From assembly GCA_038060895.1 (NCBI GenBank), contig JBBTCT010000001.1, forward strand, positions 1 through 64,000: a stretch of 64,000 bases of DNA, read 5' to 3'. The position numbers were made by a program, and so were the translations under genes. This DNA is from Planctomycetota bacterium (GTDB lineage Bacteria > Planctomycetota > MHYJ01 > WSZJ01). This document shows, piece by piece, positions 1,617-41,165 of this stretch (its first letter is position 1; each line of letters starts with the position of its first letter). The notes beneath the pieces were generated by a model that searched no databases, was not told the origin of the DNA, and saw only the letters and a list, made by a program, of their open reading frames with translations.

Positions 1617-1984
1617 CTCGCACGCGTCCGTCGCCGCGCGTCAATCGCGAGGCACGCGCCGCGATCGAGAAGCTCCCCGACGCAAGGATCCACCATGAAG
1701 TAGTAAATCTCCTTCCCTTCACGGCGCGAACCCACGACGCCCTGAGCCGCCATTCGCCGCAACTGGTTGGATGCCGCGGCGATCTTCAATCCCGAGAGTC
1801 CGGCCAGCTCGCCCACGGCGGCCTCGCCCTCGCGCGCCAGCGCGTGAAGAAGCCGAATCCGGGTCGCCGACGCGAGGACCGCGAACGTCGACCGGATCCC
1901 GACGACGAGAACCGGAGGAATCCTGGCGATCTTCAGGAACGCCGACTTCGGAGGACAGCAGAGCGACCGAGGGGCGCGTTTCAT
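1613..1984 (-). CDS. ArsR/SmtB family metalloregulatory repressor
   Basis: FAVLASATRIRLL...GELA...SNQLRRM...GVVGSRREGKEIYY winged HTH. N-terminal CC and C-terminal Cys residues. Start ATG 1984 chosen because the operator lies directly upstream. Confidence 0.85.
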   Translation of the reverse strand: MKRAPRSLCCPPKSAFLKIARIPPVLVVGIRSTFAVLASATRIRLLHALAREGEAAVGELAGLSGLKIAAASNQLRRMAAQGVVGSRREGKEIYYFMVDPCVGELLDRGACLAIDARRRTRAR

Positions 1985-1988
1985 GTCA

Positions 1989-2014
1989 TACATTACACGT
2001 CTTTGTGTAATGTA
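1989..2014. promoter_or_regulatory. ArsR/SmtB-type operator palindrome
   Basis: TACATTACAC-gtcttt-GTGTAATGTA: perfect 10-bp arms over a 26-bp span, like the 12-2-12 operators of this family. It lies immediately upstream of arsR. Confidence 0.7.
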
Positions 2015-2323
2015 GAGCAAGCCCGATCCACGAAAGCGAATCTAGCGTGCCTGGAACGGGGCCGCGGCATCCCTGTGCGCTCCTGCGATTCGCAGCCAGG
2101 CGTTCCTGCCGACGCCGCGTGGCCCGGGCAGGAAGAAACTCGCCTTGGGATGCTCCAGCGTTCGGGAGCACACAAGACTCATAAGTCATGGTTTCAGGAC
2201 TCTCCAAGACCTGATTTCATCAGGCTCGGACAGGAGCCCGTGAGAGTGTCGCGAGGCCATCGCCAGTCCTTGCCTTCCCGTTTGCGCAACTCGAGGGCGA
2301 GACCAACCCGATAGGATAACGCC

Positions 2324-3541
2324 ATGCCCGCAGCATCCATCCCGCAGGCCGCGGCCCTCATCGAAGCGCTGGCGAGCCGCCGCGCGATCCGGACGCCGTG
2401 GGTGAAGGCGGCGTTCGAAGCGACGCACCGGCACCATTTCGTCCCGCCGGCGTACCGGTTTCCGGCACCGGACGGCGGCCTGACGGAACACGCATGGAAT
2501 CCCGCCGCCCCAACCGAAGAGGATTTCGGCCGGATTTATGCCGACAAGGTCCTGGTCTACAAAACGTCCGCCGACGGGAACGAGTCCCACGTCACGCTCT
2601 CCGAGCCGGGTGTAAACGCTCTCGTTTGCGAGGGACTGCAGCTCGCAGACGGACTCAGGATCATGGAAATCGGCGGCGGCCTCGGCTTCCAGGCGGCGCT
2701 CTTTTCCGGCGCCGGCGGCACGAACGAGGTGACGGCGCTGGAAATCGACGAGGAGTCGGCGGCGCGCGCGAACCGGGCGCTGGCGGAGTTCTACCCGGAG
2801 CGTCCCGTGCGTGTCGTCGCGACGGACGGCTGGCCGGGCGTCGCGGGCGCGGTGTTCGACCGGATCGTGGCGAGCGTGACGTGTCCAGACGTCTCACAGG
2901 CGTGGATCGACCAGCTCGCGGCCGGCGGCCGGATGCTGGTGCCGCTCGCGGCGGCGGGGTGGCGCGGGATGCTGACGCTGAAGCGCGACGGGGCGCAGGT
3001 GAAAGGTCGCATGGTGCTTCCGCTCGGGTACCTGAACCTCCGCGGAAGCCATCCGGCGACGCACGGTGTGCAGGTCCCCGTGAGCGAGCTCGCGCCCTGC
3101 GGCAAGGACGCGCTCACCCGCGAGCCGCTGTCGCCGATGAACTTCGCACACCATCTCGTCATTTCGCTTCTCGGAACCTGCCGCGGCGCCGGCTGGTTCA
3201 TCGCGGAGGACGACGTGCTCAAGACCGGAGGCTTTCATCCGCCCGCCGTCCGAACCGTGGAGCCGGCAGGCTTCGCGTTCCTCGCGCCGGACGCACTCGT
3301 GTGGGGGGGCCACCCTGCGGCACGGGAGATCCTGCGCGGGACGCTGAGAGAGTGGGAGATCCTGGGCAAGCCCGCCATCCCTGATTTCGAAGCAGAAATC
3401 CTGGACCGCGGCGCCATGAGAGCGGGAGATCCCGACGCACTCTGGCTGCCTCTGGAGGAGCACGCACTTCGCTGGGTACTCAAGCCGCTTCCGAAACCGC
3501 AGGCTGCAGCTGAGAACTCGAGTGGCGCGCGGACGACTTGA
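2324..3541 (+). CDS. Protein-L-isoaspartate O-methyltransferase (PCMT)-like SAM methyltransferase with C-terminal extension
   Basis: AF..T.RH.FVP, TLSEP, MEIGGGLGFQAAL, FDRIV and DQLAAGGRMLVP motifs. Confidence 0.75.
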   Translation: MPAASIPQAAALIEALASRRAIRTPWVKAAFEATHRHHFVPPAYRFPAPDGGLTEHAWNPAAPTEEDFGRIYADKVLVYKTSADGNESHVTLSEPGVNALVCEGLQLADGLRIMEIGGGLGFQAALFSGAGGTNEVTALEIDEESAARANRALAEFYPERPVRVVATDGWPGVAGAVFDRIVASVTCPDVSQAWIDQLAAGGRMLVPLAAAGWRGMLTLKRDGAQVKGRMVLPLGYLNLRGSHPATHGVQVPVSELAPCGKDALTREPLSPMNFAHHLVISLLGTCRGAGWFIAEDDVLKTGGFHPPAVRTVEPAGFAFLAPDALVWGGHPAAREILRGTLREWEILGKPAIPDFEAEILDRGAMRAGDPDALWLPLEEHALRWVLKPLPKPQAAAENSSGARTT

Positions 3542-4397: not shown

Positions 4398-5513
4398 TCA
4401 CTTCGTTTTGCGCGCCGGCCGGGTCCGAACGACAGGTCGCGAAGCATCCAGGACGAAGCCTTTCTTTCGCGCGCGCGCTTCGTCCTCGGTCTCCGGGCCC
4501 TCCCAGCGGATGACTCCATGGAAGAGGATCACGGCGATGATGCCGATGCAGAATTCCACGCGGTATCCGAACGTGGCGGCCAGGAGAGCGACGTAGCCGG
4601 CGAGAAGCACCAGGACCGACGTGTAGCGAAGGGCGACGAAGAAAGCGGCAAGGCCTGCCAGGAGCATCCGGCCGGCGCGGCGGAAAAGTCGGACGGGGCC
4701 GACCACGGTGAGCTCGGAGGCGACGGGCCGGAGCCGGAGCATGAGCTGCGGGACGTTGGTGAAGCGATCCGCCGGCGCGTAGGCCAGGGCTCCGAGGAGA
4801 AGGGTGACGACATCGGCGGGAAGAGCGGCCTTGAGCGCCTCCGGCGTCGCGGCGCGGTCGGGGCGATTCCCCAGAAGCACCTCGTGCAGCATGACCCCGA
4901 GCGCATAGACATCCCAGCTCGGCGCCGGCGCTTCGCCCTGAAGACCTTCGGGGGGCATGTAGTGAAGCGTTCCTCCCCAGCCTCCCTCCGATTCGTCCAT
5001 GGACCGGCTGACACGGCTGTCGAGGCGCGCGTGATGGATGGCGCGCGCCATGCCGAAGTCGATGAGCCACGGCTGACCGCCGTCGTCGAGCAGGATGTTC
5101 TCGGGCTTGAGATCGCCGTGGATGAATCCGCGGTCCTGCACATCGGCGACGGTGGAGGCCACCTGGAGGAGGATTCCGGTCGCGTGGGACCGGTCGTCGC
5201 CGCTCTTGATCCCGTCGAGCAGGTCGCGAAAGGTGCGACGACCCTTCCAGGGGAATACCAGGTGCGGGACGGGCGAAGCGCTGTATTCCGCCGGGACCAG
5301 GCCGCGGACTCCGTCGGCTTCGAGCGCGCGGACAATGTCGGCCTCGGGTTGAAGGGTCGCGGCGGCGAGCGGCGACAGCGCGAATTTGACGGCGACTTCC
5401 GCGCCGTCGGACCGGCGACGGCCCTTCCAGACCTCGCTCAGGTTGGTGACCGAGACCTGCGCTTCCAGCGTGATCTCGGGTTCAAGCAGGGTGGTATAGA
5501 TGACGCCGCTCAT
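4398..5513 (-). CDS. Membrane-anchored Ser/Thr protein kinase
   Basis: VAVK, HGDLKPEN, DFG, GTLHYMPPE, DVYALG; C-terminal hydrophobic helices. ATGA overlap with the upstream kinase. Confidence 0.85.
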   Translation of the reverse strand: MSGVIYTTLLEPEITLEAQVSVTNLSEVWKGRRRSDGAEVAVKFALSPLAAATLQPEADIVRALEADGVRGLVPAEYSASPVPHLVFPWKGRRTFRDLLDGIKSGDDRSHATGILLQVASTVADVQDRGFIHGDLKPENILLDDGGQPWLIDFGMARAIHHARLDSRVSRSMDESEGGWGGTLHYMPPEGLQGEAPAPSWDVYALGVMLHEVLLGNRPDRAATPEALKAALPADVVTLLLGALAYAPADRFTNVPQLMLRLRPVASELTVVGPVRLFRRAGRMLLAGLAAFFVALRYTSVLVLLAGYVALLAATFGYRVEFCIGIIAVILFHGVIRWEGPETEDEARARKKGFVLDASRPVVRTRPARKTK

Positions 5514-6871
5514 TGCATCATGAACGTCCACAGGGGATGGCCGCGGCGGTTCTTGTAGGTTCTTTCCGGGACGCCGGAGATCCAGGCGTTGATCGTCGTG
5601 ATGCCGAGCAGCGTGCCGATGAGGGCGAGCGGGACCGCGAACGGAATTGCAAGGGCGACGGCCAGCGGCAGCGCTTCTCTTCCGACCTCGAGATTCGACG
5701 GTTCGGGGGAGGTGACGAGCAGGACGGCGCCTGTGAGCGCGAGGGCGACGATGGCGGTGTAGAAGAGGACGCGGACTCCGCGCAGGAAGGTGCGCTTGCG
5801 CTCGGTGAAGACGAGGCGGCGTTCGTGGCCGGAGCGGCGGCGGAGGCAGCGCCGCTCTTCGAGGATGAAGGCGTCGATCGCGTGAAGCAGGGCTCCGGCG
5901 TCCGGGATGCGCCTCGCGGGGTCGTGCTGGAGCATGTCGCGAAGGAACACGTCCGACCCTGGCGGCAGGTACTCGTTCAATTCGTCGGGGCTGACGCCGA
6001 ACGCCGGCGGGCGGCCGCAGAGCATGTGGTGGAGAATGACGCCCAGCGCGTAGACGTCGGAGGCCTTGGAGGGCGGCGCGCCGGACATCGTCTCGGGCGA
6101 CATGAACGCCAGCGTCCCCGCGATTTTTTCGCCGGTGACGCTGATGACGGAGGCGCGAAGCGTGGAAAGCTGGCGCACGGCGAGCTGGTGGCGCGCGATT
6201 CCGAGGTCCAGCAGGTGGCAGACCTCGTCCAGCTGCGGCCAGTTCTCGTCGTCGGCCCAGCGCGACGCGACGCCGTGGAAGGCGCTTCGGCCCGGCTCGG
6301 GCACGCGCGGCGCGAAGCGGATATTTCCGGGCTTCAGGTCGCCGTGCGCGATTTCGGCGGCATGCAGGCGCGCAACGACCTCGACGATCGCGCGGAAGCG
6401 CCGGAACGCGTCCATGATCTCCCAGGGTGACGGCGCGCGATCCGGGAGGACGAAATTCTTGCCGGGCACGAACGGCATGACGAGGAAGGGCGGATCGTGA
6501 TCGAGGCAGACTTCGAAGATCGGAACGACCTGCGGGTCCTGGAATCGCGAGGAGATCAGGGCTTCGCGCTTGAGGTGCGCGATGAATCCCTCGACCCGGG
6601 GCAGCTTCAGCGCGACGGTTTCGCCCGTGGCGAGGCGCGTGGCGCGGAAGACCATCGAGAATCCTCCGGCGCCCGCAAATTCCTCGATGCGACACCCGCG
6701 CAGCACGCGCCCGATGAACGCCGCGGCGCCCGCGGCCGGAGGCGCCGCCGGCGCACCGCATGTTTCCAGGACGCGCGACGCGTCGGGCTGAGCGGGCGGA
6801 GGCGCTTTCCCGAAATCCAGGTTTCGGGAATTGAGAATCGGATCGATCGGGCCAGACTCAGGTTCCACCAT
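5510..6871 (-). CDS. Membrane-anchored Ser/Thr protein kinase
   Basis: GAGGFSMV, VALK, HGDLKPGN, DLG, GTLAFMSPE; two C-terminal TM helices. RBS GAGGAGG before ATG 6871. Confidence 0.85.
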   Translation of the reverse strand: MVEPESGPIDPILNSRNLDFGKAPPPAQPDASRVLETCGAPAAPPAAGAAAFIGRVLRGCRIEEFAGAGGFSMVFRATRLATGETVALKLPRVEGFIAHLKREALISSRFQDPQVVPIFEVCLDHDPPFLVMPFVPGKNFVLPDRAPSPWEIMDAFRRFRAIVEVVARLHAAEIAHGDLKPGNIRFAPRVPEPGRSAFHGVASRWADDENWPQLDEVCHLLDLGIARHQLAVRQLSTLRASVISVTGEKIAGTLAFMSPETMSGAPPSKASDVYALGVILHHMLCGRPPAFGVSPDELNEYLPPGSDVFLRDMLQHDPARRIPDAGALLHAIDAFILEERRCLRRRSGHERRLVFTERKRTFLRGVRVLFYTAIVALALTGAVLLVTSPEPSNLEVGREALPLAVALAIPFAVPLALIGTLLGITTINAWISGVPERTYKNRRGHPLWTFMMQ

Positions 6872-24461: not shown

Positions 24462-25634
24462 GTGAAGCGCTTCATCGGAATTCTGGAGGACGATGCGGAG
24501 AGCAGGGTTCCGCAATTCGTGCAGACCTCGAGAATCCTGGAGCGCTCCGGGTTTCAGTTGGTCGTGCATGAGATTGTTCCGGACTTTACGAAGTGGATGG
24601 CCTCCACCTGGTCGGAGATTGCCCTGGTGTCGCTTGATCACGACCTCGGACTCCCGAGGGAGGTCGATGGGATTCGGGTTGATCCCGGCGAAGGAATGGA
24701 TGCGGTCCGGTATCTCGCGGGGCGGAAACCGGACTTCCCGGTCGTGGTGCACAGTGCCAATCCCATTGGCGCCGAACGGATGATGCTCGGCCTTGCGGAC
24801 GCCGGCTGGACCGCTTGGCGACTGCCGCCATTTGGCGACGATTGGATCGGGACAGCATGGTTACGCCGTGTGCTGTTGCTGACGGGCGCTGAGAGTGCCT
24901 CAGACTTACTTTGCGATTACGTCCTTCAGCGTCTTCTCCACCTCGGCCGCGTTATCCCCGACGGCCACGGTCGCGACCAGCTCTCCTTCCGCATTCAGGA
25001 CCGACAGCCCTGGGAATTCCGCGCCCGCGTTCGCCTTTACGAATGCGTACGCGTGCGGCCGCCGGATCAGGATTCGGACGTACGACTGCGAGGCCTTGAC
25101 GACCCCTTCGTTCTTCAACGTGTCGCAGAGCGGACCGCTCTCGAAGTGTGCGGTCGCTCATCACGTCTCCGCGCCGCTGGCGCCCACGAGCACTTTCTTG
25201 CCTGCCTTTTTTGCCTCGGCGAGTGCGTCGTCGAGTTGCTCGGGACCGGCGTATGTCCATTCGACGCCCGGCCAGGCCGCTCCGTCCTCGGCCGTCAGAG
25301 TCACCGTAACCGTTTCTTCCTTCAGCGTGTCGCTGCGCTTGAGGCGGACTTTCACCTCGGCTCCCGGCTTTGCGACCTTCAGCTGGTCGGTCAGGTCGTC
25401 GTTCGTGAACAGCTTCTGGTCTCCGAACTGAAGCAGCACGTCGCCGGCCTTGATGCCCGCCTTTGCAGCTGCACCGCCTTCCGCGACCTTGTCGACCACC
25501 ACGCCGCACACCCGGTCCACCAGCACTTCCTCCAACCCGAGCGGCTCTTCTTCCTCCTGCGCCGCAGCGTGCGATTCGAGCCCCAGCACCGCCCGTTTCG
25601 GCTTCGGCGGCTCTTCGGCAAACGCGACGGCTGA
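24462..25634 (+). CDS. Receiver-like protein (cyclic-phosphate-processing REC type); the domain ends near 24890 but the frame runs on antisense to the neighbour
   Basis: ILEDD, SLDHDLG, G.D...L, VHSANP.GA..M in the first 140 aa. The remainder is shadow sequence of the minus-strand gene. Confidence 0.6.
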   Translation: MKRFIGILEDDAESRVPQFVQTSRILERSGFQLVVHEIVPDFTKWMASTWSEIALVSLDHDLGLPREVDGIRVDPGEGMDAVRYLAGRKPDFPVVVHSANPIGAERMMLGLADAGWTAWRLPPFGDDWIGTAWLRRVLLLTGAESASDLLCDYVLQRLLHLGRVIPDGHGRDQLSFRIQDRQPWEFRARVRLYECVRVRPPDQDSDVRLRGLDDPFVLQRVAERTALEVCGRSSRLRAAGAHEHFLACLFCLGECVVELLGTGVCPFDARPGRSVLGRQSHRNRFFLQRVAALEADFHLGSRLCDLQLVGQVVVREQLLVSELKQHVAGLDARLCSCTAFRDLVDHHAAHPVHQHFLQPERLFFLLRRSVRFEPQHRPFRLRRLFGKRDG

Positions 25635-25667
25635 TGCGAGGAGAAGGACAGGCAAGTGGAGCTTCAT
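24906..25667 (-). CDS. Predicted selenoprotein A: signal peptide + PDZ + thioredoxin-like domain with adjacent U-U (253 aa)
   Basis: ORFs 25161..25724 and 24906..25118 are in frame: KKVLVGASGAET-TGA(25163-61)-TGA(25160-58)-ATAHFESGPLCDTLKNEGVVKAS. True stop is TAA. PDZ motif GGAAAKAGIKAGDVLL. Colinear with its paralogue on both sides of the TGAs. Confidence 0.82.
25123..25144 (-). promoter_or_regulatory. Candidate SECIS for selenoprotein A
   Basis: UCG-AGAGCG-[GUC]-CGCUCU-G-CGA. The loop starts 22 nt after the second UGA and begins with GU. Confidence 0.6.
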
Positions 25668-25735
25668 GAGCGTTGCCTTGACTGGAAGTTCATTGAGCAC
25701 GGCGCTGAACGGACGGCGCATCATACTCCGCGGAA

Positions 25736-26419
25736 TCAGCGGGACGACCGAACCTCCGCCAGTAGATCCGCAAACTTCCTGGCCTGGAAGTGCCCCTCAA
25801 AGCGCCGGAGCACCCTTCCGTCTGGCGTCAGCGCCACGGCTACGGGAACGGCGGAAACCTGGAGCAACTCCGCGACGCCACGCTCGCCCTCAACGTCCAC
25901 CCGGTCGAAAACCCACTTCGCCAGCTCGGCCCGGACTGATTCGTGTGGATACGTCTCCGCATCCATGAGCTCGCACGTCACTCACCCGGGACCGCTGAAA
26001 TCGAGAAGCACCAGCTTCCCGGAGGTACGCGCTTCGTCGAACCGCACTCGAAGCCGTTCCGGCAGCGTCGCCGGGTCGATGCGCTCGACTGCCGCAGCAA
26101 CGGGCGCACTTCCTGAATCGAGTCGCCGCACCGAGTAGCCGAGCCCGCGCACGGTTTCGCAAATCCGCTCCGCTGTCGTGCGGGAAGGGTCAAACCGGAT
26201 GTCAAATCGATCGTCCGCCAGGGTGACCGTCAATTCGAGAACTCCGGGATGCCCCTCCAGGGCCTCCTGTACGGCGTTCGGTCACCCCAGTCAGGTCAAC
26301 CCGAGCGTCTTCGTCATCCCTTCAACCCGGATGGCAACGACGCCTTCCTGTGACGCGGGGGGCGCCGAAGCGCACCCGCACGCGAGAATCAGCACGAAGA
26401 CCATGCGCTGTTGAATCAC
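25736..26419 (-). CDS. Predicted selenoprotein B: lipoprotein, HMA domain (UxxU) + thioredoxin domain (UxxC) (about 227 aa, 3 Sec)
   Basis: GTG 26419 overlapping the upstream stop (GTGA), or ATG 26404. Lipobox LACG-C. IRVEGMTKTLGLT-TGA(26293-91)-LG-TGA(26284-82)-PNAVQEALEGHPGV...GLGY, then GKLVLLDFSGPG-TGA(25984-82)-VTCELMDAETY...SAVP. All in one frame. Confidence 0.88.
25946..25965 (-). promoter_or_regulatory. Candidate SECIS for the UxxC codon
   Basis: UGGAUGCG-[GAGA]-CGUAUCCA, 8-bp stem; loop starts 24 nt after UGA. Confidence 0.65.
26239..26279 (-). promoter_or_regulatory. Candidate SECIS for the UxxU codons
   Basis: GGA-G-GCCCU-[GGA]-GGGGC-A-UCC upper stem with GAAC/GUUC and CCG/CGG lower stems; loop starts 23 nt after the second UGA. 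Confidence 0.5.
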
Positions 26420-27201
26420 TTCGCCTGCTTTCTCATTTCTTCGAGCACGACCTTCGCATCAGGCTCCCCTCCCAGGGGGACTCCGCCGACCCGCTTGCCG
26501 TCCGCGGTCAGGAAGCTGAGGCCCGGGATCGGTGCGGCGTCGTGCGCGGCGGCGAAGGCGTACGCGTGCGGCCGTCGGAGGATGATCCGGACGAAAGCCT
26601 CTGAGGCCTTCACAACCTCTGCGTCCTCGAGTGCCTTTGAGAGCGAACCGCTCTCGAATCGCGTGGAGCCTCATCACGTTTCAGCGCCCGACAAGCCCAC
26701 GAGCACTTTCTTTCCCTCTTTCTTCGCCAGGGCGAGCGCCGCATCGAGTTGCGCCGGGCCAGCGAACGTCCACTCGATGCGCGCTTCCTTCGGGCGCGGC
26801 TGGGAACCGAGCGTGACTTCGACAGTCTCTTCTTTCTTCGACTCTCCGCGACGCAGCAGCACTTTCACTTTCTGCTCGGGCTTCGCGGCGCGGACGAAAT
26901 CCTGAAGATCGTCACTCGAGTAGATACGGTTGGCGTCGAGCGCCAGAATCGCGTCACCTGCGGTGATGCCAGCCGCCCCCGCAGGGCCATCCTTGGCGAC
27001 CTCTTCGACGATCTGCCCGTTCACGCGGCCGGCGAGCGGATCTCCCAGGCTCAAGGCTGCCTTCTCGGAAGCGTCGGGCGCCCGGGTTCCCGCGCCGAAG
27101 AGGGCGGCCGGGGGCGGCTTTGCCTCAGGCTTGGGGTCCTCCGCGATTGCAAGTGAAGCGAACGAGACCGCCAGGACGATGCCGCCGGCAAGTTTGCGCA
27201 T
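26416..27201 (-). CDS. Predicted selenoprotein C: signal peptide + PDZ + thioredoxin-like domain with adjacent U-U (261 aa), paralogue of A
   Basis: KKVLVGLSGAET-TGA(26676-74)-TGA(26673-71)-GSTRFESGSLSKALEDAEVVKASEAFVRIILRRPHAYAF, in frame with ORF 26416..26613. PDZ motif DGPAGAAGITAGDAIL. Confidence 0.82.
26637..26658 (-). promoter_or_regulatory. Candidate SECIS for selenoprotein C
   Basis: GAGAGCG-[GUU]-CGCUCUC, perfect 7-bp stem, at the same offset (loop 22 nt after the second UGA) as in paralogue A. Confidence 0.65.
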
Positions 27202-27299
27202 GATGCCGTTCTCCACTTCGGAATTACCAATAGGTACGCTCCGGCTGCATCGGGAATTCCGGAATTCGCGGTACCGGCGCGAAATGCTTCTCCCGGACG

Positions 27300-28610
27300 T
27301 TACTTCGAAGCAGGAACGGGTACGTGGATCTCGGAGGTGAAGAGTCGCTTTGGGTCCGACCAGGAGGCCTGCCTCTTCAGCAGCAGCTCAAAATCTACTT
27401 CGACCACGGCATTGAACGCTTCCTTGCCATTGACCTGAACGACGACCGGCTTCGACAGGTCGGCCATGTCGGGGCTGACGCGGATCGTGAAGTCCTTGAT
27501 GTCGCGGGTCGTGACCTTGTACAGGTTGCCGCCCGCGTACTCGGCCTCGATGCGCGCCGAGTCGCCGCACTCGCCGAACTCGAGCCACCAGCCGCCTTTC
27601 AGCGGCGCGGTTTTCGGGAAGACCTTGTACCAGGCGGCGTCCCAGCACCACACGACGCGCGAGGGCCAGAGGATCCGGCGCTCCTTCTCCACTACGTCGA
27701 GCACCACTTTCGCGATTTCCGCCTCGTCTTTCGGGAACCACGTGTTGTGGTCGCCTCCCGCGTACTCCTTGTACCAGACCGGCGTGCCTACTTTCTTCAG
27801 CCCCTCGACACCCTTCCTGTCGAGATCGACCGGCACATCCGCGTCCAGCTCCCCGTGCCAGATCCAGTACCCCAGCTTCCCCGGCTGCTCGTACGGGCCG
27901 CGCTCTCCCCAGTTTGAGGGCGGGCCGCCCGCCATCGGCATCACCGCAGCCCAGTACTCCGGGTACCGCAGGCTGAACCACCAGGACCCGAACCCTCCTG
28001 CGCTGAATCCGCTCAGGTAGATCCGCTCCGGGTCCACGTTGAACTTCGCTCGCCACGCGTCCATGTACGCGAAGAAGAACGACTCCTCGTACACCAGCGG
28101 ATCCGTCGCCCCGTCCACCGGGTGCCAGTACTGCCGGTTCGGCGATGCCGGAGCCACGCAGATCATCCCTTTCGAGGAAGCCCACGTGGACCACGGCTCC
28201 GTCCCCATCGGGCCATTCGAGCCATGCAGGTAAATCCACAGGGGCGTCGGCTTCAGAGGGTCGTAGGTCTTCGGCACCACCCACTGAAACTCGCGGTCGA
28301 TCCCGTTCTGCTTGAACACTTCTTTCCCGCGAAACACCGGCTGCCCCTTCGCATCCTTGAACCCCGTCCGCGCGAACTTCGCGCCCCGGATCAGCTCAAG
28401 ATCCTTCTTCACAGCGTCCGACCAGGGCGCCCGCTCCCACTTCCCCGCCTCAGTCAGCGCCAGCGCCTGCTTCGCCGGATCCTCCGAAAGGAACTCCTTG
28501 ATCCGCTTCTGCCGCACCGGCGAGTCGGTTTTGAGTTTTTTCGGCGAAGCGTCTTCCGCAAAGGCAGTCGCGGCGAACAGGAGCAGTAGCGCGGAATTCC
28601 GGTGACGCAT
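27300..28610 (-). CDS. Secreted alpha/beta hydrolase (esterase/peptidase-like)
   Basis: Signal peptide; VP..YDP.KP.PL...LHG, DPERIYLSGFSAGG, HG..D..VP, GGDH. Confidence 0.8.
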   Translation of the reverse strand: MRHRNSALLLLFAATAFAEDASPKKLKTDSPVRQKRIKEFLSEDPAKQALALTEAGKWERAPWSDAVKKDLELIRGAKFARTGFKDAKGQPVFRGKEVFKQNGIDREFQWVVPKTYDPLKPTPLWIYLHGSNGPMGTEPWSTWASSKGMICVAPASPNRQYWHPVDGATDPLVYEESFFFAYMDAWRAKFNVDPERIYLSGFSAGGFGSWWFSLRYPEYWAAVMPMAGGPPSNWGERGPYEQPGKLGYWIWHGELDADVPVDLDRKGVEGLKKVGTPVWYKEYAGGDHNTWFPKDEAEIAKVVLDVVEKERRILWPSRVVWCWDAAWYKVFPKTAPLKGGWWLEFGECGDSARIEAEYAGGNLYKVTTRDIKDFTIRVSPDMADLSKPVVVQVNGKEAFNAVVEVDFELLLKRQASWSDPKRLFTSEIHVPVPASK

Positions 28611-34791: not shown

Positions 34792-37700
34792 ATGAAATCC
34801 CTCCCCTCCGGCTTCTTCGGCTTCACTGTCTCCCGCCCCGTCGCGGTCTTCATGATCACGACTGCCTTCGCGGTCTTCGGCGCGGTCTCCTACCGCCGCC
34901 TGTCGCTCAACCTCATGCCGGACATTTCCTATCCCTCGGTGACCATCCGCACGGAGATGGAGGGTGCCGCTCCCGAGGACGTCGAGCGCGGCGTGACGGA
35001 GCCGGTCGAAGAGGCCGTCGGGGTCGTCGGCGGTCTCGTTCAGCTCACAAGCGTTTCACGCGCCGGGACGAGCGACGTCACCCTAGAGTTCGAATGGGGA
35101 ACGAAGATCGAGACGGCTCTTCAGGAAGTCCGGGAAAAACTCGATCACCTGCAGCTGCCGCGGGAAGCAAAGCGCCCCGTGCTGTTGCGTTACGACCCGA
35201 ACCTGGACCCGATCATGCGGATCGGGATCAGCGGGAACCGGGGACTGGTCGCGCTTCGATCGCTCGCGGACGAGGACGTGCGGCGCTCGCTTGAGAGCAC
35301 TTCCGGCGTCGCCGCGGTCAAGGTTCGCGGAGGGCGCGAAGAGGAGATCCACGTCGAGGTTCACCGGGCGGCGCTGGCGCAGCTGGGGCTGGACCCGCGC
35401 GCAGTCGCCGAGCGGCTCGGGCAGGAGAATCTGAACCAGCCCTCGGGGTCGCTCATCGAAGGCGACGTTCAGTACCTCGTGCGGACGCTGAACGAGTTCC
35501 GGTCCCAGGCGGAGCTTGGCGAAATCGTCCTGTCGCGCAAGGACGACCGTGTCGTGAAGCTGAAAGATGTCTCGACGATCCTCCGCGTCTCGAAGGACCC
35601 GAAGATCCTGGCACGGATTGACGGGCGTGAAGCGGTGCTGCTGGACATCTACCGCGAAGCGGACGCGAACATCGTCGGGGTCGCCGACGCCGTGCGCGAG
35701 CGGCTTGAGGGGGTGCCGCCGCCGTGGTGGCAGAAATACGGTAAGGGCGGCGAGGCGGAAGAGGACAGAGACAGGATCCGGCTCCCTGCGGGGATCCAGG
35801 CCACGATCCTCACCGACCAGAGCACCTTCGTCCGCTCGGCCATCGATGCGGTCTACTCGGCGGCGTGGCAGGGCGCCCTGCTTGCCGTCATCGTCCTCTT
35901 TCTGTTCCTGCGGTCGCTCACGGACACGCTGATCATCGGCGTGTCGATTCCCCTTTCGATCGTGACGACTTTCGGGGCGATGCACCTCTGCGGCATCTCG
36001 CTGAACGTGATGTCGCTGGGGGGGCTTGCGCTCGGCGTCGGCATGATGGTGGACGCATCGATCGTCGTGCTCGACTCCATCGCGCGGTGCCGCGACGAGG
36101 GGGACGACCGCGCGACCGCGGCGGTGCGCGGCACGCGCGAAGTCGGGCTCGCCGTGTCGGCCAGCGTGCTCACGACCGTCGTCGTCTTCTTCCCGATCGC
36201 CTTCATCGAGGGAATCGCGGGCCAGATTTTCCGCGATCAGGCGCTCACGGTCTGCATCTCGCTCATGGCCTCCATGGGCGTGTCGCTCTTCTTCGTGCCG
36301 ATGCTGTCATCGCGGGAATGGAAGAAACCCGAAGTGCGGCTCCCGGTGGGAAAGATCTTCACGCTCGACTACGTCCGCCGTGCGCGTGCGGGATTCGCGG
36401 CCCGCACCGTCACGGGAATCGCCGACGGACTTCTTTCGCTGCTCTTGCTCCCCGTGGCGGCCGTCCTCGAGCTTCACATTCAGCCCCTCGTCTGGTTCTT
36501 CTGGGCGCTGACCTGGCTGCTGGTCTGGATCGTTCGCATCCTGGGATTCGTCGCCGGCTGGGCCGTCTTTCCGCTGCTGTGGGTCTTCACAAAGGGAATG
36601 GACCGCCTGAACGTGTTCTATCCCGCCGCCCTGCGCATCGCGCTTCGCAGCAAGCTCATCCTCGCCGCCGCTTCCGTCGCCGTGGCCCTGGGGACCGTGT
36701 CGCTCGTCCCCCGCCTTGAACAGGAACTCATCCCGACCATGCACCAGGGAGAGTTTATTCTCGAAGTGTCGCTTCCGGTCGGAACCCCGATCGAGCGCAC
36801 GGACGCAGAGGTCAGCGCGCTCGAGAAGGCCATCCTCGCTACGCCGGGCGTGGCGCGCGTGGTGTCGGCGGTGGGCGTCGAGGACGACGCGAATCGCCGG
36901 GAGAGCGAGGGCGAGAACACGGCGCGCATCCGCGTCGCGCTCAAGCCCGCCGACGACCTCGAGGCCGCGGAACGCCAGGTCCTCCTCGCCCTCCGCGAAC
37001 GGTTCTCTTCTATTCCCGACGTCACCGTGCAGGTCGCCCATCCCGTGCTGTTTTCATTCCGCACGCCGCTCGAGCTGGAAGTCCGCGGGCACGACCTCGC
37101 GCAGATCCGCCGCTCCGCCCGCGACGCCGAGCAGGCGCTGGCGAAGCTTCCGGGCCTCACCGACGTCCGTTCCACCGTCGGCCGCGGCTCGCCGGAAATC
37201 CGGGTGACCTACAACCGCCCGAAGCTGGCGGAGTACGGGCTCGACATCAACGCGGTGGCCTCGATCGTGCAGAACCAGGTGCTGGGAACGGAAGCGACGA
37301 AGTTATCGGAGGAGGACCGGAAGGTGCCGGTGCGGGTGTCGGGCGAAGACCGGGATACCGGAGAGCTGGCGCGCGTGGCGGCGATCGTGGTGAACCCCGG
37401 GGCGGCGATCCCGGTGCGACTCGGGGCTGTGGCGACCTTTGCGCGGGCGGAGGGTCCGAACGAAGTGCGTCGCGTGGCGCACCAGCGTGCGGCGCTGGTG
37501 AGGGCGAACGTGAAGGGATACGACCTGGCCGGGGCGGCTCGGGAAGCGGAGCGGGCGGTTTCGCGGCTGCCAAGGGGGGAAGACGTGAGCTTCGTGATGG
37601 GCGGGCAGAGCCGCGAAATGCGATCCAGCGCGAACTCGCTGATCTTTGCGATCGTGCTGGCGGTCTTCCTCGTCTACGTCGTCATGGCCGCGCAATTCGA

Positions 37701-38127
37701 AAGCCTGCTGCACCCGTTCCTGCTGATGTTCACGGTGCCGATGGGGCTCGTGGGAACTGTGATCGCGCTCCTCGTGACGGCGACGCCGGTCTCGGTCGTC
37801 GTGGCAATCGGCGTGATCGTGCTCGCCGGCGTCACCGTGGACAACGGCATCGTCCTCATCGACGCCGCCAACCAGGTGCGCGCGACCGGCGCTTCCGCAA
37901 CCGACTCGATCCTCCGCGCGGCCAAAACCCGCCTCCGGCCGGTCCTCATGACCAGCCTCACCACGATGCTCGGCCTCGTCCCGATGGCGATCGGCATCGG
38001 CGACGGGGCCGAACTCCAGGCGCCCCTCGCCATCGCCGTTCTCGGCGGCTTGCTCTCCGCCACGTTCCTCACACTCATCCTCGTCCCCGTCCTCTGGCAC
38101 ACCGTTGAAGCGCGGAAGGACGCATGA
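34792..38127 (+). CDS. RND efflux permease subunit (AcrB/MdtB-like)
   Basis: RPV..MP.I.YP, GA.PEDVE..VT.P.EE, GMMVDASIV, RLRPVLMT..TT.LG..P. Confidence 0.93.
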   Translation: MKSLPSGFFGFTVSRPVAVFMITTAFAVFGAVSYRRLSLNLMPDISYPSVTIRTEMEGAAPEDVERGVTEPVEEAVGVVGGLVQLTSVSRAGTSDVTLEFEWGTKIETALQEVREKLDHLQLPREAKRPVLLRYDPNLDPIMRIGISGNRGLVALRSLADEDVRRSLESTSGVAAVKVRGGREEEIHVEVHRAALAQLGLDPRAVAERLGQENLNQPSGSLIEGDVQYLVRTLNEFRSQAELGEIVLSRKDDRVVKLKDVSTILRVSKDPKILARIDGREAVLLDIYREADANIVGVADAVRERLEGVPPPWWQKYGKGGEAEEDRDRIRLPAGIQATILTDQSTFVRSAIDAVYSAAWQGALLAVIVLFLFLRSLTDTLIIGVSIPLSIVTTFGAMHLCGISLNVMSLGGLALGVGMMVDASIVVLDSIARCRDEGDDRATAAVRGTREVGLAVSASVLTTVVVFFPIAFIEGIAGQIFRDQALTVCISLMASMGVSLFFVPMLSSREWKKPEVRLPVGKIFTLDYVRRARAGFAARTVTGIADGLLSLLLLPVAAVLELHIQPLVWFFWALTWLLVWIVRILGFVAGWAVFPLLWVFTKGMDRLNVFYPAALRIALRSKLILAAASVAVALGTVSLVPRLEQELIPTMHQGEFILEVSLPVGTPIERTDAEVSALEKAILATPGVARVVSAVGVEDDANRRESEGENTARIRVALKPADDLEAAERQVLLALRERFSSIPDVTVQVAHPVLFSFRTPLELEVRGHDLAQIRRSARDAEQALAKLPGLTDVRSTVGRGSPEIRVTYNRPKLAEYGLDINAVASIVQNQVLGTEATKLSEEDRKVPVRVSGEDRDTGELARVAAIVVNPGAAIPVRLGAVATFARAEGPNEVRRVAHQRAALVRANVKGYDLAGAAREAERAVSRLPRGEDVSFVMGGQSREMRSSANSLIFAIVLAVFLVYVVMAAQFESLLHPFLLMFTVPMGLVGTVIALLVTATPVSVVVAIGVIVLAGVTVDNGIVLIDAANQVRATGASATDSILRAAKTRLRPVLMTSLTTMLGLVPMAIGIGDGAELQAPLAIAVLGGLLSATFLTLILVPVLWHTVEARKDA

Positions 38128-41100
38128 GGAAGAGCCGGCTGGCGACCCTGAGCGTCGAGAAACCCGTGACCATGATCATGGCGACGCTGGCGCTCATCGC
38201 CGTGGGCACCCTCGCCTACATGCGCCTTCCGGTCCAGCTCCTCCCCTCCGGCTTCACCCCGCCGTTCCTCTTCGTCCGCGTCCCCTTCCGCGACGGCACT
38301 CCCCGCGAAGTCGAGCGCTTCGTGACGCGTCCGGCCGAGGAAGCGCTCTCGACGGTGCGGAACATCGAGACGATCAACTCGCGAAGCGGCGCGAACGAAT
38401 CGCGGATGTGGATCGCGTTCCGCAACGGCACCGACATGGACGACGCGTACGCCGAGGTCCGCGACCGCATGGACCGCGCCATGGCGGAAATGCCGGCCGA
38501 CGTCGAGCGCTATCACGTCTACAAGTTCAACCCGAACTCCGACCCCGTGATGGAAATCGCGGTTTCGTACCCGGAGGACGAGGAGGACCTGCAGCGGCTC
38601 GAGCAGAAACTGCGCCGCGAGCTGGAACGGCTCCCGGGAGTCGCGAGCCTGGAGTTCGAAGGCCTCGTGGACGAGTCCATCCGCATCGAGATCGACCGGG
38701 ACAAGGCGAAAGCGGCGGGCGTCAACCTCTACCAGCTTGTCCAGCGCCTCCGCTCCGAAGATTTCACAATGGGCTCAGGCACCATCACGGAAGGCGGCGT
38801 CGAGCACACGCTCCGCTCGGTCGCGACGCTCGAAGGGCCGGCCGCCGTCGCCGCCCTCCCCGTGCGCCCCGGTGTTTCCCTTGGCGACGTGGCGGACGTC
38901 CACCCGGCGCTGTCCCTCCGCGACGTGATCAGCCGCATCGACGGGAAGCCCTCGATCTCGATCGAGATCTTCAAGGAAAGCGAAGCCAATACGGTCGAGG
39001 TCTGCAATGCCGTCCGAAAGGTGATCGAAGAGGAACTCCCCCGCGATCCGGAACTCGCCGGGACGAAGTTCTTCGTGCTGGAAGACTCCGGCAGGCTCAT
39101 CAGCAGCTCGATCGAGACCCTCGAGCAATCCGCGCTCCAGGGCGCGTTCTTCTCGCTCGTCATCCTCTGGATCTTCCTCCTGCGCCTCCGCCTGTCGCTC
39201 ATCATCAACGTCGCCGTCCCCGTCTCGATGCTCGTGACGCTGGTCGTCATGCACTTCACCGGCGAAAGCTTCAACATCGTGACCCTCATGGGCCTCACGC
39301 TCTCGATCGGGATGCTCGTGGACAACTCCGTCGTTGTCTCCGAGAACATCGACCGGCTGCGCCAGCTGGGAGTGCCGCCGCGCGAAGCCGCCGTCCGGGG
39401 CGCTTCGGAAGTCGCCCTCGCCGTGACGCTCTCGACCCTCACTTCCGTAGTCGTCTTCCTCCCACTCGCCCTCATGTCCGGCGACGGCATGATGCAGTTC
39501 TTCATGGGCCGCCTCGCCATCCCTCTCTGCGTCTCGCTGGGCGCCTCCCTGCTCGTATCGCTCGCCCTCATCCCCGCCGCCACCCTGTTCCTCGCCGGGC
39601 GCCGCACCCCGAAACCGCTGGCCCCGATCCGCTGGGTCGCCTCCGCCACAGGCGCGGGCGCCGGCTGGTGCCTCCGGCACCGCCTCGAAGTCGTCCTCGT
39701 CGCCGCAGCCGTCTGCGTCTCGATCATGTACCCGTTCGAGAAGATGGAAAAGTCGATGGAGCCCAGGGAACAGCGGCACGACCTCGAGGTCTTCTTCCGC
39801 TTCACCACCACCGGCTCCCTTGCTGAAAACGACCGCGCCATGCGCCTCATCGAGTCGGCCGTAACCCCTCACATGGCGGAACTCCAGGCGACCAACCGTC
39901 GCGTCCGCTTCCGCGAATCCTGGGGCCGCATGACGCTGTACCTCGACAAGCGGTCCCGCACCGATGAAGAGCGCGAGAAGCTGCTCGAGCAATTCAAGGG
40001 TTACATTCCCGTCATCGCGGGCGTCGAGGCGTCGTCCTCCTGGCGAGGCGGCCAGGGACGCGGCGGACAGGTTGATTTCCAGATCGTGGGGGATGATTCG
40101 GAAGCGCTGGCGGAGTTGTCCGAGGAAGTGAAGCGCCGCCTCAAGCTGCTTCCCGGCGTCGCGGACGTGACGACGGATCTCGAGTCCGGCTCGGATGAGA
40201 TCCGGGTGAAGGTGAAGCGCGAGCGTGCGAGCCGCGCGGGGATCGAGTCCTGGGTTGCCGCAGGAACGGTCTCGACGGCGCTTCGCGGCGCGCGGCTGCC
40301 CGATCTTCGAGTCGGGGGGCGCGAAGTGCCGCTGATCCTGCAGTTCCCCGAGGACGACCGCGAAAACCTGGCGCAGCTCGCGCAGATCTCTCTCTACCCG
40401 CCCGGCGGCGGCGGCCCCGTGCCGCTGGGTGCGCTGGCGGATTTCGAGTTCGCCAGGGGATTCGCGGCGATCAACCACGAAAATCGGAAGACGTCGATGG
40501 GCGTGCACGTGGTTGCGAAAGGCGACGACGTCTTCGGCCTCTCCGAAACGGTCAAGTCAGAGCTCGAACGGTTCCGATGGCCCCAGGGAACGTCGTACGA
40601 CATGGGCTCCTGGTCCCGGCGCTGGAAGGGAGAGCAGGGCGACTACACCTTCTCGCTCATCATGTCCGTGATCTTCGTCTTCCTCATCATGGGAATCCTT
40701 TTCGAGTCCTGGGTCCTTCCCTTCTCGGCCCTCGCCTCGATCCCCTTCGCCATCGTCGGCGCCTACTGGTTCCTGTGGGCCACCGACACGGCGCTGGACC
40801 TCATGGCGATCATCGGGATGGTCGTCCTCGTCGGCGTCGTCGTGAACAACGCCATCGTTCTGATCGACCGCATCAACCAGATGCGCGAAGAAGGCATGGA
40901 ACGCGCTGCCGCCTGCCGCGAGGCCACCGTCTCGCGCTTCCGCCCCATCTGGATCACGGCGCTCACCACGATCGTGGGCCTGATCCCGATGGCCTTCGGA
41001 GACGCGGGCGTGGCGGGCGTCCCCTACGCGCCGCTCGCGCGCGCGGTGGGAAGCGGGCTGCTGGTCTCGACGGTCTGCACGCTCTTCGTCGTGCCCGTCG

Positions 41101-41165
41101 TCTACACGCTCCTGGACGACGTGCGGGAAGGGGCGAGGAGGCTGGCGGCCAGGCTCAGAGCGTGA
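38124..41165 (+). CDS. Second RND efflux permease subunit
   Basis: GMLVDNSVVV.ENI, GVVVNNAIVL.D, RFRPI..T..TT; ATGA overlap. Confidence 0.93.
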   Translation: MRKSRLATLSVEKPVTMIMATLALIAVGTLAYMRLPVQLLPSGFTPPFLFVRVPFRDGTPREVERFVTRPAEEALSTVRNIETINSRSGANESRMWIAFRNGTDMDDAYAEVRDRMDRAMAEMPADVERYHVYKFNPNSDPVMEIAVSYPEDEEDLQRLEQKLRRELERLPGVASLEFEGLVDESIRIEIDRDKAKAAGVNLYQLVQRLRSEDFTMGSGTITEGGVEHTLRSVATLEGPAAVAALPVRPGVSLGDVADVHPALSLRDVISRIDGKPSISIEIFKESEANTVEVCNAVRKVIEEELPRDPELAGTKFFVLEDSGRLISSSIETLEQSALQGAFFSLVILWIFLLRLRLSLIINVAVPVSMLVTLVVMHFTGESFNIVTLMGLTLSIGMLVDNSVVVSENIDRLRQLGVPPREAAVRGASEVALAVTLSTLTSVVVFLPLALMSGDGMMQFFMGRLAIPLCVSLGASLLVSLALIPAATLFLAGRRTPKPLAPIRWVASATGAGAGWCLRHRLEVVLVAAAVCVSIMYPFEKMEKSMEPREQRHDLEVFFRFTTTGSLAENDRAMRLIESAVTPHMAELQATNRRVRFRESWGRMTLYLDKRSRTDEEREKLLEQFKGYIPVIAGVEASSSWRGGQGRGGQVDFQIVGDDSEALAELSEEVKRRLKLLPGVADVTTDLESGSDEIRVKVKRERASRAGIESWVAAGTVSTALRGARLPDLRVGGREVPLILQFPEDDRENLAQLAQISLYPPGGGGPVPLGALADFEFARGFAAINHENRKTSMGVHVVAKGDDVFGLSETVKSELERFRWPQGTSYDMGSWSRRWKGEQGDYTFSLIMSVIFVFLIMGILFESWVLPFSALASIPFAIVGAYWFLWATDTALDLMAIIGMVVLVGVVVNNAIVLIDRINQMREEGMERAAACREATVSRFRPIWITALTTIVGLIPMAFGDAGVAGVPYAPLARAVGSGLLVSTVCTLFVVPVVYTLLDDVREGARRLAARLRA

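Follow-up and report, generated by a model that had tools for sequence, protein, structure and literature searches.

We describe here an operon of three genes with seven in-frame UGA codons (two, three and two in the genes named A, B and C, respectively) that occupies positions 24906-27216 on the minus strand of a 64,000-nucleotide stretch of DNA from a planctomycete (assembly GCA_038060895.1, contig JBBTCT010000001.1, positions 1 to 64,000; hereafter called the window, with a GC content of 66.3%). From the comparison with homologous sequences, A, B and C are very probably true selenoproteins with more than one selenocysteine (Sec) each. On the evidence available, A and its paralogue C would represent an undescribed bacterial selenoprotein family that carries an invariant pair of adjacent Sec residues and its own selenocysteine insertion sequence (SECIS). 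The best overall explanation, which we consider somewhat more likely than not, is an operon of exported selenoproteins in which Sec is inserted by SelB and tRNA-Sec and whose products would together form a metal-handling relay.

Three intact reading frames interrupted only by TGA

With translation table 11, the minus strand of the region is split into short open reading frames (ORFs). Reading TGA through yields three intact, co-oriented frames, and within these frames we found no TAA, no TAG and no frameshift. An earlier reading of the window from its letters (the original prediction) had proposed exactly this collapse of the fragments into three genes, and the translated frames bear it out.

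Gene A (26416-27216, minus strand) encodes 266 amino acids if counted from a GTG at 27216; the likelier start is an ATG at 27201, which is preceded by GGAG and coincides with the end given in the original prediction, and the gene ends with a TGA at 26416-26418. Its predicted product consists of a signal peptide, a PDZ domain and a thioredoxin-fold domain with two adjacent in-frame UGA codons at 26671-26676 (U181 and U182). Gene B (25736-26419, minus strand), which also ends with TGA, encodes a predicted lipoprotein of 227 amino acids in which an HMA domain (UxxU) is followed by a thioredoxin domain (UxxC); its in-frame TGA codons are located at 26291-26293 (U43), 26282-26284 (U46) and 25982-25984 (U146). 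Gene C (24906-25724, minus strand) ends with TAA and encodes a paralogue of A with 48% identity. Its likely start is an ATG at 25667 (MKLHLPV...), a start kept in the closest relative, and two adjacent UGA codons lie at 25158-25163 (U188 and U189). A GTGA overlap links the stop codon of A to the GTG start of B; the original prediction had announced this overlap, naming the pair C and B. Long open frames antisense to the three genes, such as a frame of 390 amino acids at 24462-25634 on the plus strand, are the usual artefact of high-GC DNA.

Export signals, which had been predicted for all three proteins, can be read by eye from the sequences: signal peptides in A (LAVSFASLAIA/ED) and C (LLLASAVAFA/EE), and a lipobox (LILAC) in B.

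The in-frame TGA codons are conserved and align with cysteines

Conservation of the TGA codons was examined in 401 sampled genomes of the phylum. With A as the query, all 23 matches at E≤1e-13, found in 21 genomes, contain exactly two TGA codons. When 185,579 species-representative genomes were scanned with a sequence pattern, 28 loci were obtained, and 27 of them read GAETUU; by their record titles, 26 belong to planctomycete taxa and two to an “uncultured bacterium”. The Sec-Sec pair (UU) is invariant in all 25 aligned domains, as is TGATGA in 44 aligned DNA sequences (40 of them distinct). B as the query gave 35 matches at E≤1e-12 in 33 of the 401 genomes, with two (19 matches), three (14) or four (2) TGA codons and never fewer. 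In 19 aligned homologues of B, the U-x-x-U of the HMA domain is invariant, and the column of U146 holds U in 12 and C in seven sequences. No Cys form of the UxxU was seen in the fusion family of B; the HMA family at large has CxxC.

A search of 1.84 billion representative proteins with a profile of the UU domain yielded 276 matches at E≤1e-3. Among the 150 matches listed, 21 proteins terminate immediately ahead of the UU columns and about 110 have their start beyond them, which is the expected footprint of gene calls truncated at the pair. The remaining 19 span the columns: 11 carry Cys-Cys, six are WCxxC proteins of the thioredoxin_7 type, and the last two, the full-length proteins P0010 and P0012, lack the pair, the loop being deleted in one and H-L standing in its place in the other. 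These two may be degenerate or non-catalytic forms. Looking up the clusters of eight database homologues yielded no names. Thus, the homologues that the original prediction proposed to look for do exist, with TGA at the same columns in relatives from the Planctomycetota and Cys-Cys or WCxxC in rarer ones. The TGA codons also fall at the active sites to which they had been assigned: U43 and U46 at the CxxC of the HMA domain, U146 at the first Cys of the thioredoxin domain and, according to hhalign, the UU pair at that of a thioredoxin fold.

Hairpins downstream of the UGA codons

A hairpin had been predicted after each cluster of UGA codons. Such hairpins are indeed present, and the support for them comes from the comparison between genomes rather than from folding energy. 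In A, the hairpin C-GAGAGC-GGUUC-GCUCUC (26638-26656, minus strand) begins 15 nucleotides (nt) past the second UGA, and the counterpart in C is C-GAGAGC-GGUCC-GCUCUG (25125-25143, minus strand). The consensus for A, C and their homologues, C-GAGAGC-NGUNN-GCUCUC-G, is again located 15 nt past the second UGA. In the alignment, 90.9% of the cells are paired, and 12 cells have changed on both sides compared with a mean of 2.3 after shuffling; none of 500 shuffles scored as high. The pair between positions 27 and 33 is C-G in 34 and U-A in six sequences and is never broken. This switch requires two synonymous third-position substitutions (AGC to AGU and GCG to GCA), which argues for a constraint on the RNA and not on the protein. 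G29 and U30 of the loop are invariant, and this G-U resembles the G-U in the SECIS loop of Escherichia coli fdhF.

The hairpin after the UxxU of B (26248-26266, minus strand; GAGGCCC-UGGAG-GGGCAUC) occupies nt 28-46 counted from the first UGA. In the homologues of B it has seven base pairs and a UGGAN loop; the helix is 94.3% paired, and four of the seven pairs have changed on both sides. Downstream of U146, the hairpin UGGAUGCG-GAGA-CGUAUCCA (25946-25965, minus strand) begins 16 nt past the UGA and recurs nearly letter for letter, with equal spacing, in other thioredoxin-like genes of the host genome that have a single Sec codon. Distant relatives of B carry a different hairpin at this position, and the folds of the three WCxxC homologues examined contain none comparable to that of U146. 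A search of positions 24700-27400 against Rfam at E≤10 returned chance matches alone and no SECIS family.

The host genome and the genus as a whole have many thioredoxin-like genes in which one in-frame TGA takes the place of the first Cys of a CxxC motif; examples are C1:198984-199337, C2:61964-62224, C12:199808-200083, C34:94832-95137 and C35:20525-20818. The hairpin UGGAUGCG-GNNA-CGUAUCCA was found 16 nt past the UGA in two of these five genes (C2 and C12), and a close variant of it in C1. The pattern points to an expanded group of paralogous Sec-thioredoxins whose SECIS travelled with them. In selD, which has an in-frame TGA as well, a GCCCUGGAAGGGC hairpin coding for A-L-E-G lies about 35 nt past the UGA and is of the same sequence type as the hairpin after the UxxU of B; a second hairpin, GGGUCC-GGC-GGACCU, is located nearer to the UGA. 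The A-L-E-G hairpin may represent a SECIS type common to both genes or may be a coincidence.

Selenocysteine machinery and stop codon usage

If the seven UGA codons are decoded as Sec, the host should possess the necessary machinery, and the original prediction had named selABCD as a check. The host genome (47 contigs, 86.5% complete) encodes SelA (448.7 bits), SelB (310.7 bits) and SelD (364 bits; C2:48628-49548), the last with one in-frame TGA of its own. A tRNA-Sec at C4:13533-13624, about 11 kilobases (kb) from selA, is confirmed by Rfam with 71.7 bits compared with a gathering score of 47. The machinery is therefore present. A second tRNA-SeC reported by ARAGORN at C1:472898-472990 is probably a false positive: it is not found with RF01852 of Rfam, and its sequence is unlike that of a tRNA-Sec.

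TGA also serves as a stop codon in this organism. Ten of 14 checked genes of the window, A and B included, end in TGA, indicating that it is an ordinary stop here and that read-through is limited to particular TGA codons.

The Sec-Sec domain of A and C

Both A and C contain a PDZ domain of the HtrA type (Pfam family PF13180). In A, it comprises residues 66-134 (26815-27021, minus strand) and reaches 47.1 bits with a cut-off of 27 (PDZ_2, 2.9e-12); the PDZ domain of C scores 50 bits (PDZ_2, 2.6e-13). The C-terminal part of both proteins, about 120 residues, forms the UU domain, which in A is encoded at 26419-26784 (minus strand) and contains the motif G-L-S-G-A-E-T-U-U. By sequence it is hardly recognized by Pfam: Thioredoxin_7 matches the domain of A with 17.2 bits, which is under the cut-off of 27, and does not match that of C.

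An AlphaFold2 model built from an alignment of 25 domains has a predicted local distance difference test (pLDDT) score of 92.6. Foldseek returned DsbH and DsbD-gamma as the best matches in the PDB (1vrs, 2fwg and 2ju5), with template modeling (TM) scores of 0.65-0.69, E-values of 3e-5 to 2e-4 and a probability of 1.00. According to this model, the UU domain is a thioredoxin fold of the DsbD-gamma/DsbH type with its active site at the start of helix 1. An hhalign comparison of the UU profile with a canonical SGSDWCGxC protein of the thioredoxin_7 type (probability 95.9%) aligns the nucleophilic Cys with the first Sec and the residue after it with the second. The position of the resolving Cys is taken by Ser or Thr, so that W-C-x-x-C is replaced by T-U-U and the domain carries U-U-x-S/T instead of a C-x-x-C dithiol motif.

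A second branch of UU proteins (L061-L067 and L043, at the level of the phylum) has a signal peptide and a UU domain reading G-L-A/S-G-S-P-x-U-U, and lacks the PDZ domain. These proteins end in a C-terminal extension of about 250 amino acids, which consists of Cys-less repeats that look ferredoxin- or HMA-like.

Protein B combines a UxxU and a UxxC domain

The HMA domain of B (26135-26302, minus strand) exceeds the gathering threshold of Pfam PF00403 with 39.1 compared with 24.8 bits (9.8e-10). Its metal loop is T-U-L-G-U-P, so that the x-C-x-x-C of the family reads T-U-L-G-U. Among the NCBIfam models, the best matches of B are the UxxU metal-binding model NF041115, followed by CopZ, MerTP and MerP, all of them under their cut-offs: NF041115 gives 49.2 bits (cut-off 95), with residues 39-97 of B aligned to profile positions 11-69 of 74, CopZ gives 38.4 (cut-off 91) and the MerP model TIGR02052 gives 27.2 (cut-off 92.55). 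The thioredoxin domain (25760-26044, minus strand), with the site G-P-G-U-V-T-C, is matched by Thioredoxin_7 (29.1 bits) and Thioredoxin_2 (27.3 bits) and, in the NCBIfam scan, also by a DsbD model.

Some homologues of B (L015/G053, L017/G028 and L019/G022) have one more in-frame TGA, the fourth, within the loop I-P-D-T-U that directly follows the cis-Pro of the thioredoxin domain, where the protein of the window has Ala. Four Sec residues per protein are more than the two to three stated in the accessible part of a 2026 review of prokaryotic selenoproteomes (PMC13188914). A small glutaredoxin-like ORF with T-U-G-S/A-C adjoins the homologues of B in L015, L017 and L018. L015 additionally has an HMA ORF with G-M-T-U-P-Q-S-C and a membrane protein in which A-C-C-W-L-P is joined to a CopZ-like zinc-binding region. 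In other lineages, further putative selenoprotein genes therefore cluster with B.

Linkage of A-type and B-type genes and their genomic neighbors

The proposed check for conserved synteny was positive. The closest relative keeps the gene order A-B-C, and another member of the genus has A-B alone. In L058, the two genes are adjacent in the order B-A. Two loci encode both modules in a single frame: L057 as PDZ-UU-HMA(UxxU)-Trx(WCAAC) and L060 as HMA(UxxU)-Trx(WCAPC)-PDZ-UU. We then considered 49 loci with a UU domain, with no more than about 4 kb of flanking DNA per locus and several of them cut by contig ends. A B-like gene lies within about 4 kb in 18 of them. From gene order and fusions, A/C and B probably work together as a functional unit.

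Stop-to-stop clustering of the ORFs in these flanks suffered from noise, with numerous antisense frames in DNA of high GC content, and only the MerR and zf_CopZ/MerT clusters were carried on. Among the 49 loci, MerR was found in eight, zf_CopZ in nine, a MerT-like protein in eight and a resistance-nodulation-division (RND) gene in four. Pfam confirms MerR, the combination of zf_CopZ, MerT and two HMA domains, and ACR_tran in L077 and L093. The order in L077, all on one strand, is merR, zf_CopZ-merT-HMA-HMA, B and A. ORFs that read by eye as tyrosine recombinases or integrases adjoin the mer-like/UU clusters in L077 (~5042-6289) and L085 (~1901-3025); these two clusters may be located on mobile elements. 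A mer operon in the sense of MerR, MerT/MerP and MerA together was not recognized in the window or the host genome, which have no homologue of the MerR, MerT and zf_CopZ proteins of L077 and L093 at E<1e-6; the related loci have MerR and MerT-like proteins.

In the window itself, two tandem overlapping genes for AcrB-type RND pumps (34792-38127 and 38124-41165, plus strand; PF00873, 776 and 616 bits) are located about 7.5 kb from the operon on the opposite strand. They are 27-29% identical to the pump that flanks the UU locus in L093.

Relation to known selenoproteins and metal-binding proteins

To judge how much of this system is new, we compared it with described families. The accessible part of the 2026 review (PMC13188914) counts 119 families, of which “a small subset” has two to three Sec residues. 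Among its entries are the UxxU metal-binding protein NF041115, thioredoxins with UxxC, a putative selenoprotein for mercuric transport and a Trx7/PDZ protein with CxxU and one Sec, and the review also describes operons with three to six selenoprotein genes (Tso and SAO). A MerP selenoprotein is already listed in the portion seen of the Global Ocean Sampling (GOS) study. No U-U motif appears in the table of 119 families, although the supplements of its source papers could hold one, and none of the models in NCBIfam 20.0 matches the UU domain. In our literature searches, consecutive Sec residues were met only in the eukaryotic algal PDI_e; an earlier mention from bacteria is possible in supplements.

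The individual parts have recognizable relatives. B shares with NF041115 an HMA fold in which both metal-binding Cys residues are replaced by Sec (U-x-x-U), but that entry describes a stand-alone protein of about 74 amino acids, whereas B is a lipoprotein fused to a UxxC or CxxC thioredoxin, with three Sec residues here and four in some relatives. With MerP, MerT, MerR and CopZ, the module has in common a periplasmic HMA metal binder and, in related loci, flanking genes for MerR, MerT-like and zf_CopZ proteins. It differs in that its ligands would be selenium and not sulfur, in that B stays under the MerP and CopZ cut-offs and in that the host lacks these neighbors. The best structural match of the UU domain are the periplasmic thioredoxin-fold reductase modules DsbD-gamma and DsbH; relative to these, T-U-U-x-S/T stands for WCxxC, the resolving Cys is lost and the second chalcogen is placed beside the first.

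A and C resemble NF041199 (Trx7/PDZ) in combining a thioredoxin_7-like domain, a PDZ domain and Sec. This family has CxxU with a single Sec, and A and C match it with 40.5 and 40.9 bits, far under the cut-off of 300 and through the PDZ part alone (profile positions 199-273 of 390). The algal PDI_e (GUGUU), of which the part available to us states that it was presented in 2020 as the first selenoprotein in which two Sec residues follow each other (PMC7539508), is likewise a thioredoxin-fold protein with adjacent Sec-Sec. It is eukaryotic, uses a SECIS in the 3′-untranslated region and belongs to another family with another motif, whereas A and C are bacterial with a predicted in-frame SECIS shortly after the pair. 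The SAO and Tso operons of Haft and co-workers share, as far as the accessible text goes, several selenoprotein genes, an adjacent chalcogen pair and a suspected, partly extracellular role in heavy-metal handling; they comprise other families from other lineages, and their motifs are C-U and not U-U. Their NCBIfam models do not match A or C, and B gives a weak match to TsoB (E 0.0024).

The original prediction had not recognized the system as described. This applies to a part of it: UxxU HMA domains, UxxC thioredoxins and operons with several selenoproteins are known, while the Sec-Sec domain and the present combination appear undescribed. The two domains of B are of known kinds, and the lipoprotein fusion with three Sec residues here and four in two sampled relatives is a new arrangement. 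As judged from the genomes compared, the module is a conserved, Planctomycetota-wide set of predicted exported multi-Sec proteins and not a categorically new system.

Proposed function and alternative explanations

From the comparative evidence, SelB and tRNA-Sec very probably read the seven internal UGA codons as Sec, with the hairpins within the coding sequence as guides. One hairpin would serve each cluster of UGA codons, so that A, C and the HMA domain of B would each have a single element acting on two UGA codons. We propose that, outside the cytoplasm, the UxxU site and the vicinal Sec-Sec pair would provide very soft ligands of high affinity that could capture thiophilic metals, such as Hg(II), Cu(I) or Ag(I), and pass them on. 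The thioredoxin domain of B (U/CxxC) could keep the easily oxidized selenols reduced by selenol/thiol exchange, or resolve selenenyl bonds, and the PDZ domains may serve to dock the A and C modules, either on a partner or on the envelope.

We give metal handling an even chance of being the main role. Adjacent Cys pairs are the sites at which MerT and the C-terminus of MerA hand off Hg(II). The SAO preprint, in its accessible part, argues that CC and CU motifs mark contact with heavy metals. Our reading follows from these two arguments together with the HMA domain of the MerP/CopZ type and the MerR, MerT and zf_CopZ neighbors. The original prediction of an envelope redox and metal-handling system is accordingly plausible by domain content and by these genes in related loci, but the operon of the window has no metal genes next to it. 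A further-reaching version can be put forward tentatively, as a possibility to which we lean less than to the contrary: A and C would be the first prokaryotic family built on a near-obligate adjacent Sec-Sec pair, with one SECIS in the coding region for two UGA codons, and would form with B an all-selenium relay analogous to the Cys-Cys hand-off of MerP, MerT and MerA, with metal affinities beyond those of thiol systems.

A number of observations speak against the proposed explanation. Regarding the hairpins, the folding energies of the four stretches that follow the UGA codons, calculated from single sequences, do not stand apart from those of shuffled sequences (z +1.26 to -1.34). Such energies are uninformative in DNA of 66% GC, which is why we took support from the comparison between genomes. 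The stems lie in conserved codons (FES..LS and ALEG), so that coding constraint adds to their conservation, and the first UGA of the UxxU is located 33 nt before the loop G compared with 23-26 nt for the other six UGA codons. Linkage is incomplete as well: 31 of the 49 UU loci have no B-like gene in the flank examined, and of the 21 genomes with an A-type match, nine also have a B-type match, these being incomplete metagenome-assembled genomes. The metal interpretation rests on neighbors in other genomes. In the window, the operon is flanked by genes for DUF2090, HIT, kinase, K+ channel and esterase-like proteins and a tRNA-Leu, and no metal genes were found beside it. A tblastn search of the host genome, 86.5% complete as noted above, with MerR, MerT and zf_CopZ of L077 and L093 returned no homologue at E<1e-6. 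MerA was not seen in the flanks, where no search aimed at it was made. Finally, both thioredoxin-fold domains resemble reductase modules, and a purely redox role fits them equally well.

Two alternatives concern the TGA codons themselves. They could be real stops in decayed genes or in several short ones, with tandem stops after GAET and without insertion of Sec. TGA being the commonest stop (10 of 14 genes), the splitting of these genes by gene callers (21 proteins end before and about 110 begin after UU among the 150 matches listed) and the unremarkable hairpin energies would all agree with this. We nevertheless consider it very improbable, given that TGA occupies identical columns in dozens of diverged genomes, that protein conservation runs straight across it with no need for a start codon, that homologues have Cys at the same columns, that the hairpins show compensatory changes and that the Sec machinery is complete. 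Even less can be said for a reassignment of TGA to one of the standard amino acids, for example Trp or Gly, to which we attach next to no probability: it would account for all interruptions being TGA, but A, B and eight others of the 14 checked genes terminate in TGA, reading every TGA through joins unrelated frames into junk, and the homologues show Cys, not Trp or Gly, at the TGA columns.

With decoding as Sec as the preferred reading, the function may still be another one. The three proteins could be a purely redox set, that is an envelope reductase, isomerase or peroxide-scavenging system that reduces oxidized envelope proteins or small oxidants, with PDZ domains that select substrates and an HMA domain that acts as a redox or docking module and not as a metal site. 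Both thioredoxin folds are closest to DsbD-gamma, DsbH and thioredoxins, the Trx7/PDZ selenoprotein family NF041199 exists, the host genome is rich in thioredoxin-like genes with a single Sec codon, and no metal genes adjoin the operon in the window; moreover, the accessible part of the review states that a redox function is assumed for the majority of the prokaryotic selenoproteins catalogued (PMC13188914). We nonetheless regard this role as unlikely, though it deserves serious consideration, since the UxxU, the classical metal site of the fold, is invariant in all 19 aligned homologues of B, MerR, MerT-like and zf_CopZ proteins are repeatedly encoded next to the module (in 8, 8 and 9 of the 49 loci), and the loss of the resolving Cys in the UU domain is unusual for a dithiol-type reductase. 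A carrier or store of selenium, or of another chalcogen or metalloid, outside the cytoplasm appears improbable. Here, the Sec-Sec pair would bind selenide or polyselenide for uptake or detoxification; a triselenide formed with adjacent selenols might retain Se(0) or Se(-II), the Sec content is very high with seven residues in three proteins, and the lineage is rich in selenoproteins. Against this, neither the window nor those related loci that were examined showed a gene for selenium transport or metabolism beside the module, and the recurring neighbors are of the metal type.

Implications

Nearly all known bacterial selenoproteins have one Sec, and the maximum in the accessible part of the catalogue is two to three per protein (PMC13188914). 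In the UU family of the Planctomycetota, Cys-Cys is the rare form and Sec-Sec is the rule. The family is relevant to genome annotation as well: 131 of the 150 UU-family database matches listed are fragments cut at the UU site. If our interpretation is true, the operon would provide a natural system to study how SelB and one SECIS handle back-to-back UGA codons, and a natural adjacent diselenol/diselenide site for chemistry and protein engineering. Together with the UxxU-HMA partner, fused or neighboring, and the mer-like neighbors, it would also suggest that toxic soft metals are handled outside the cytoplasm by means of selenium, which would bear on the cycling of mercury and copper in sediments and groundwater.

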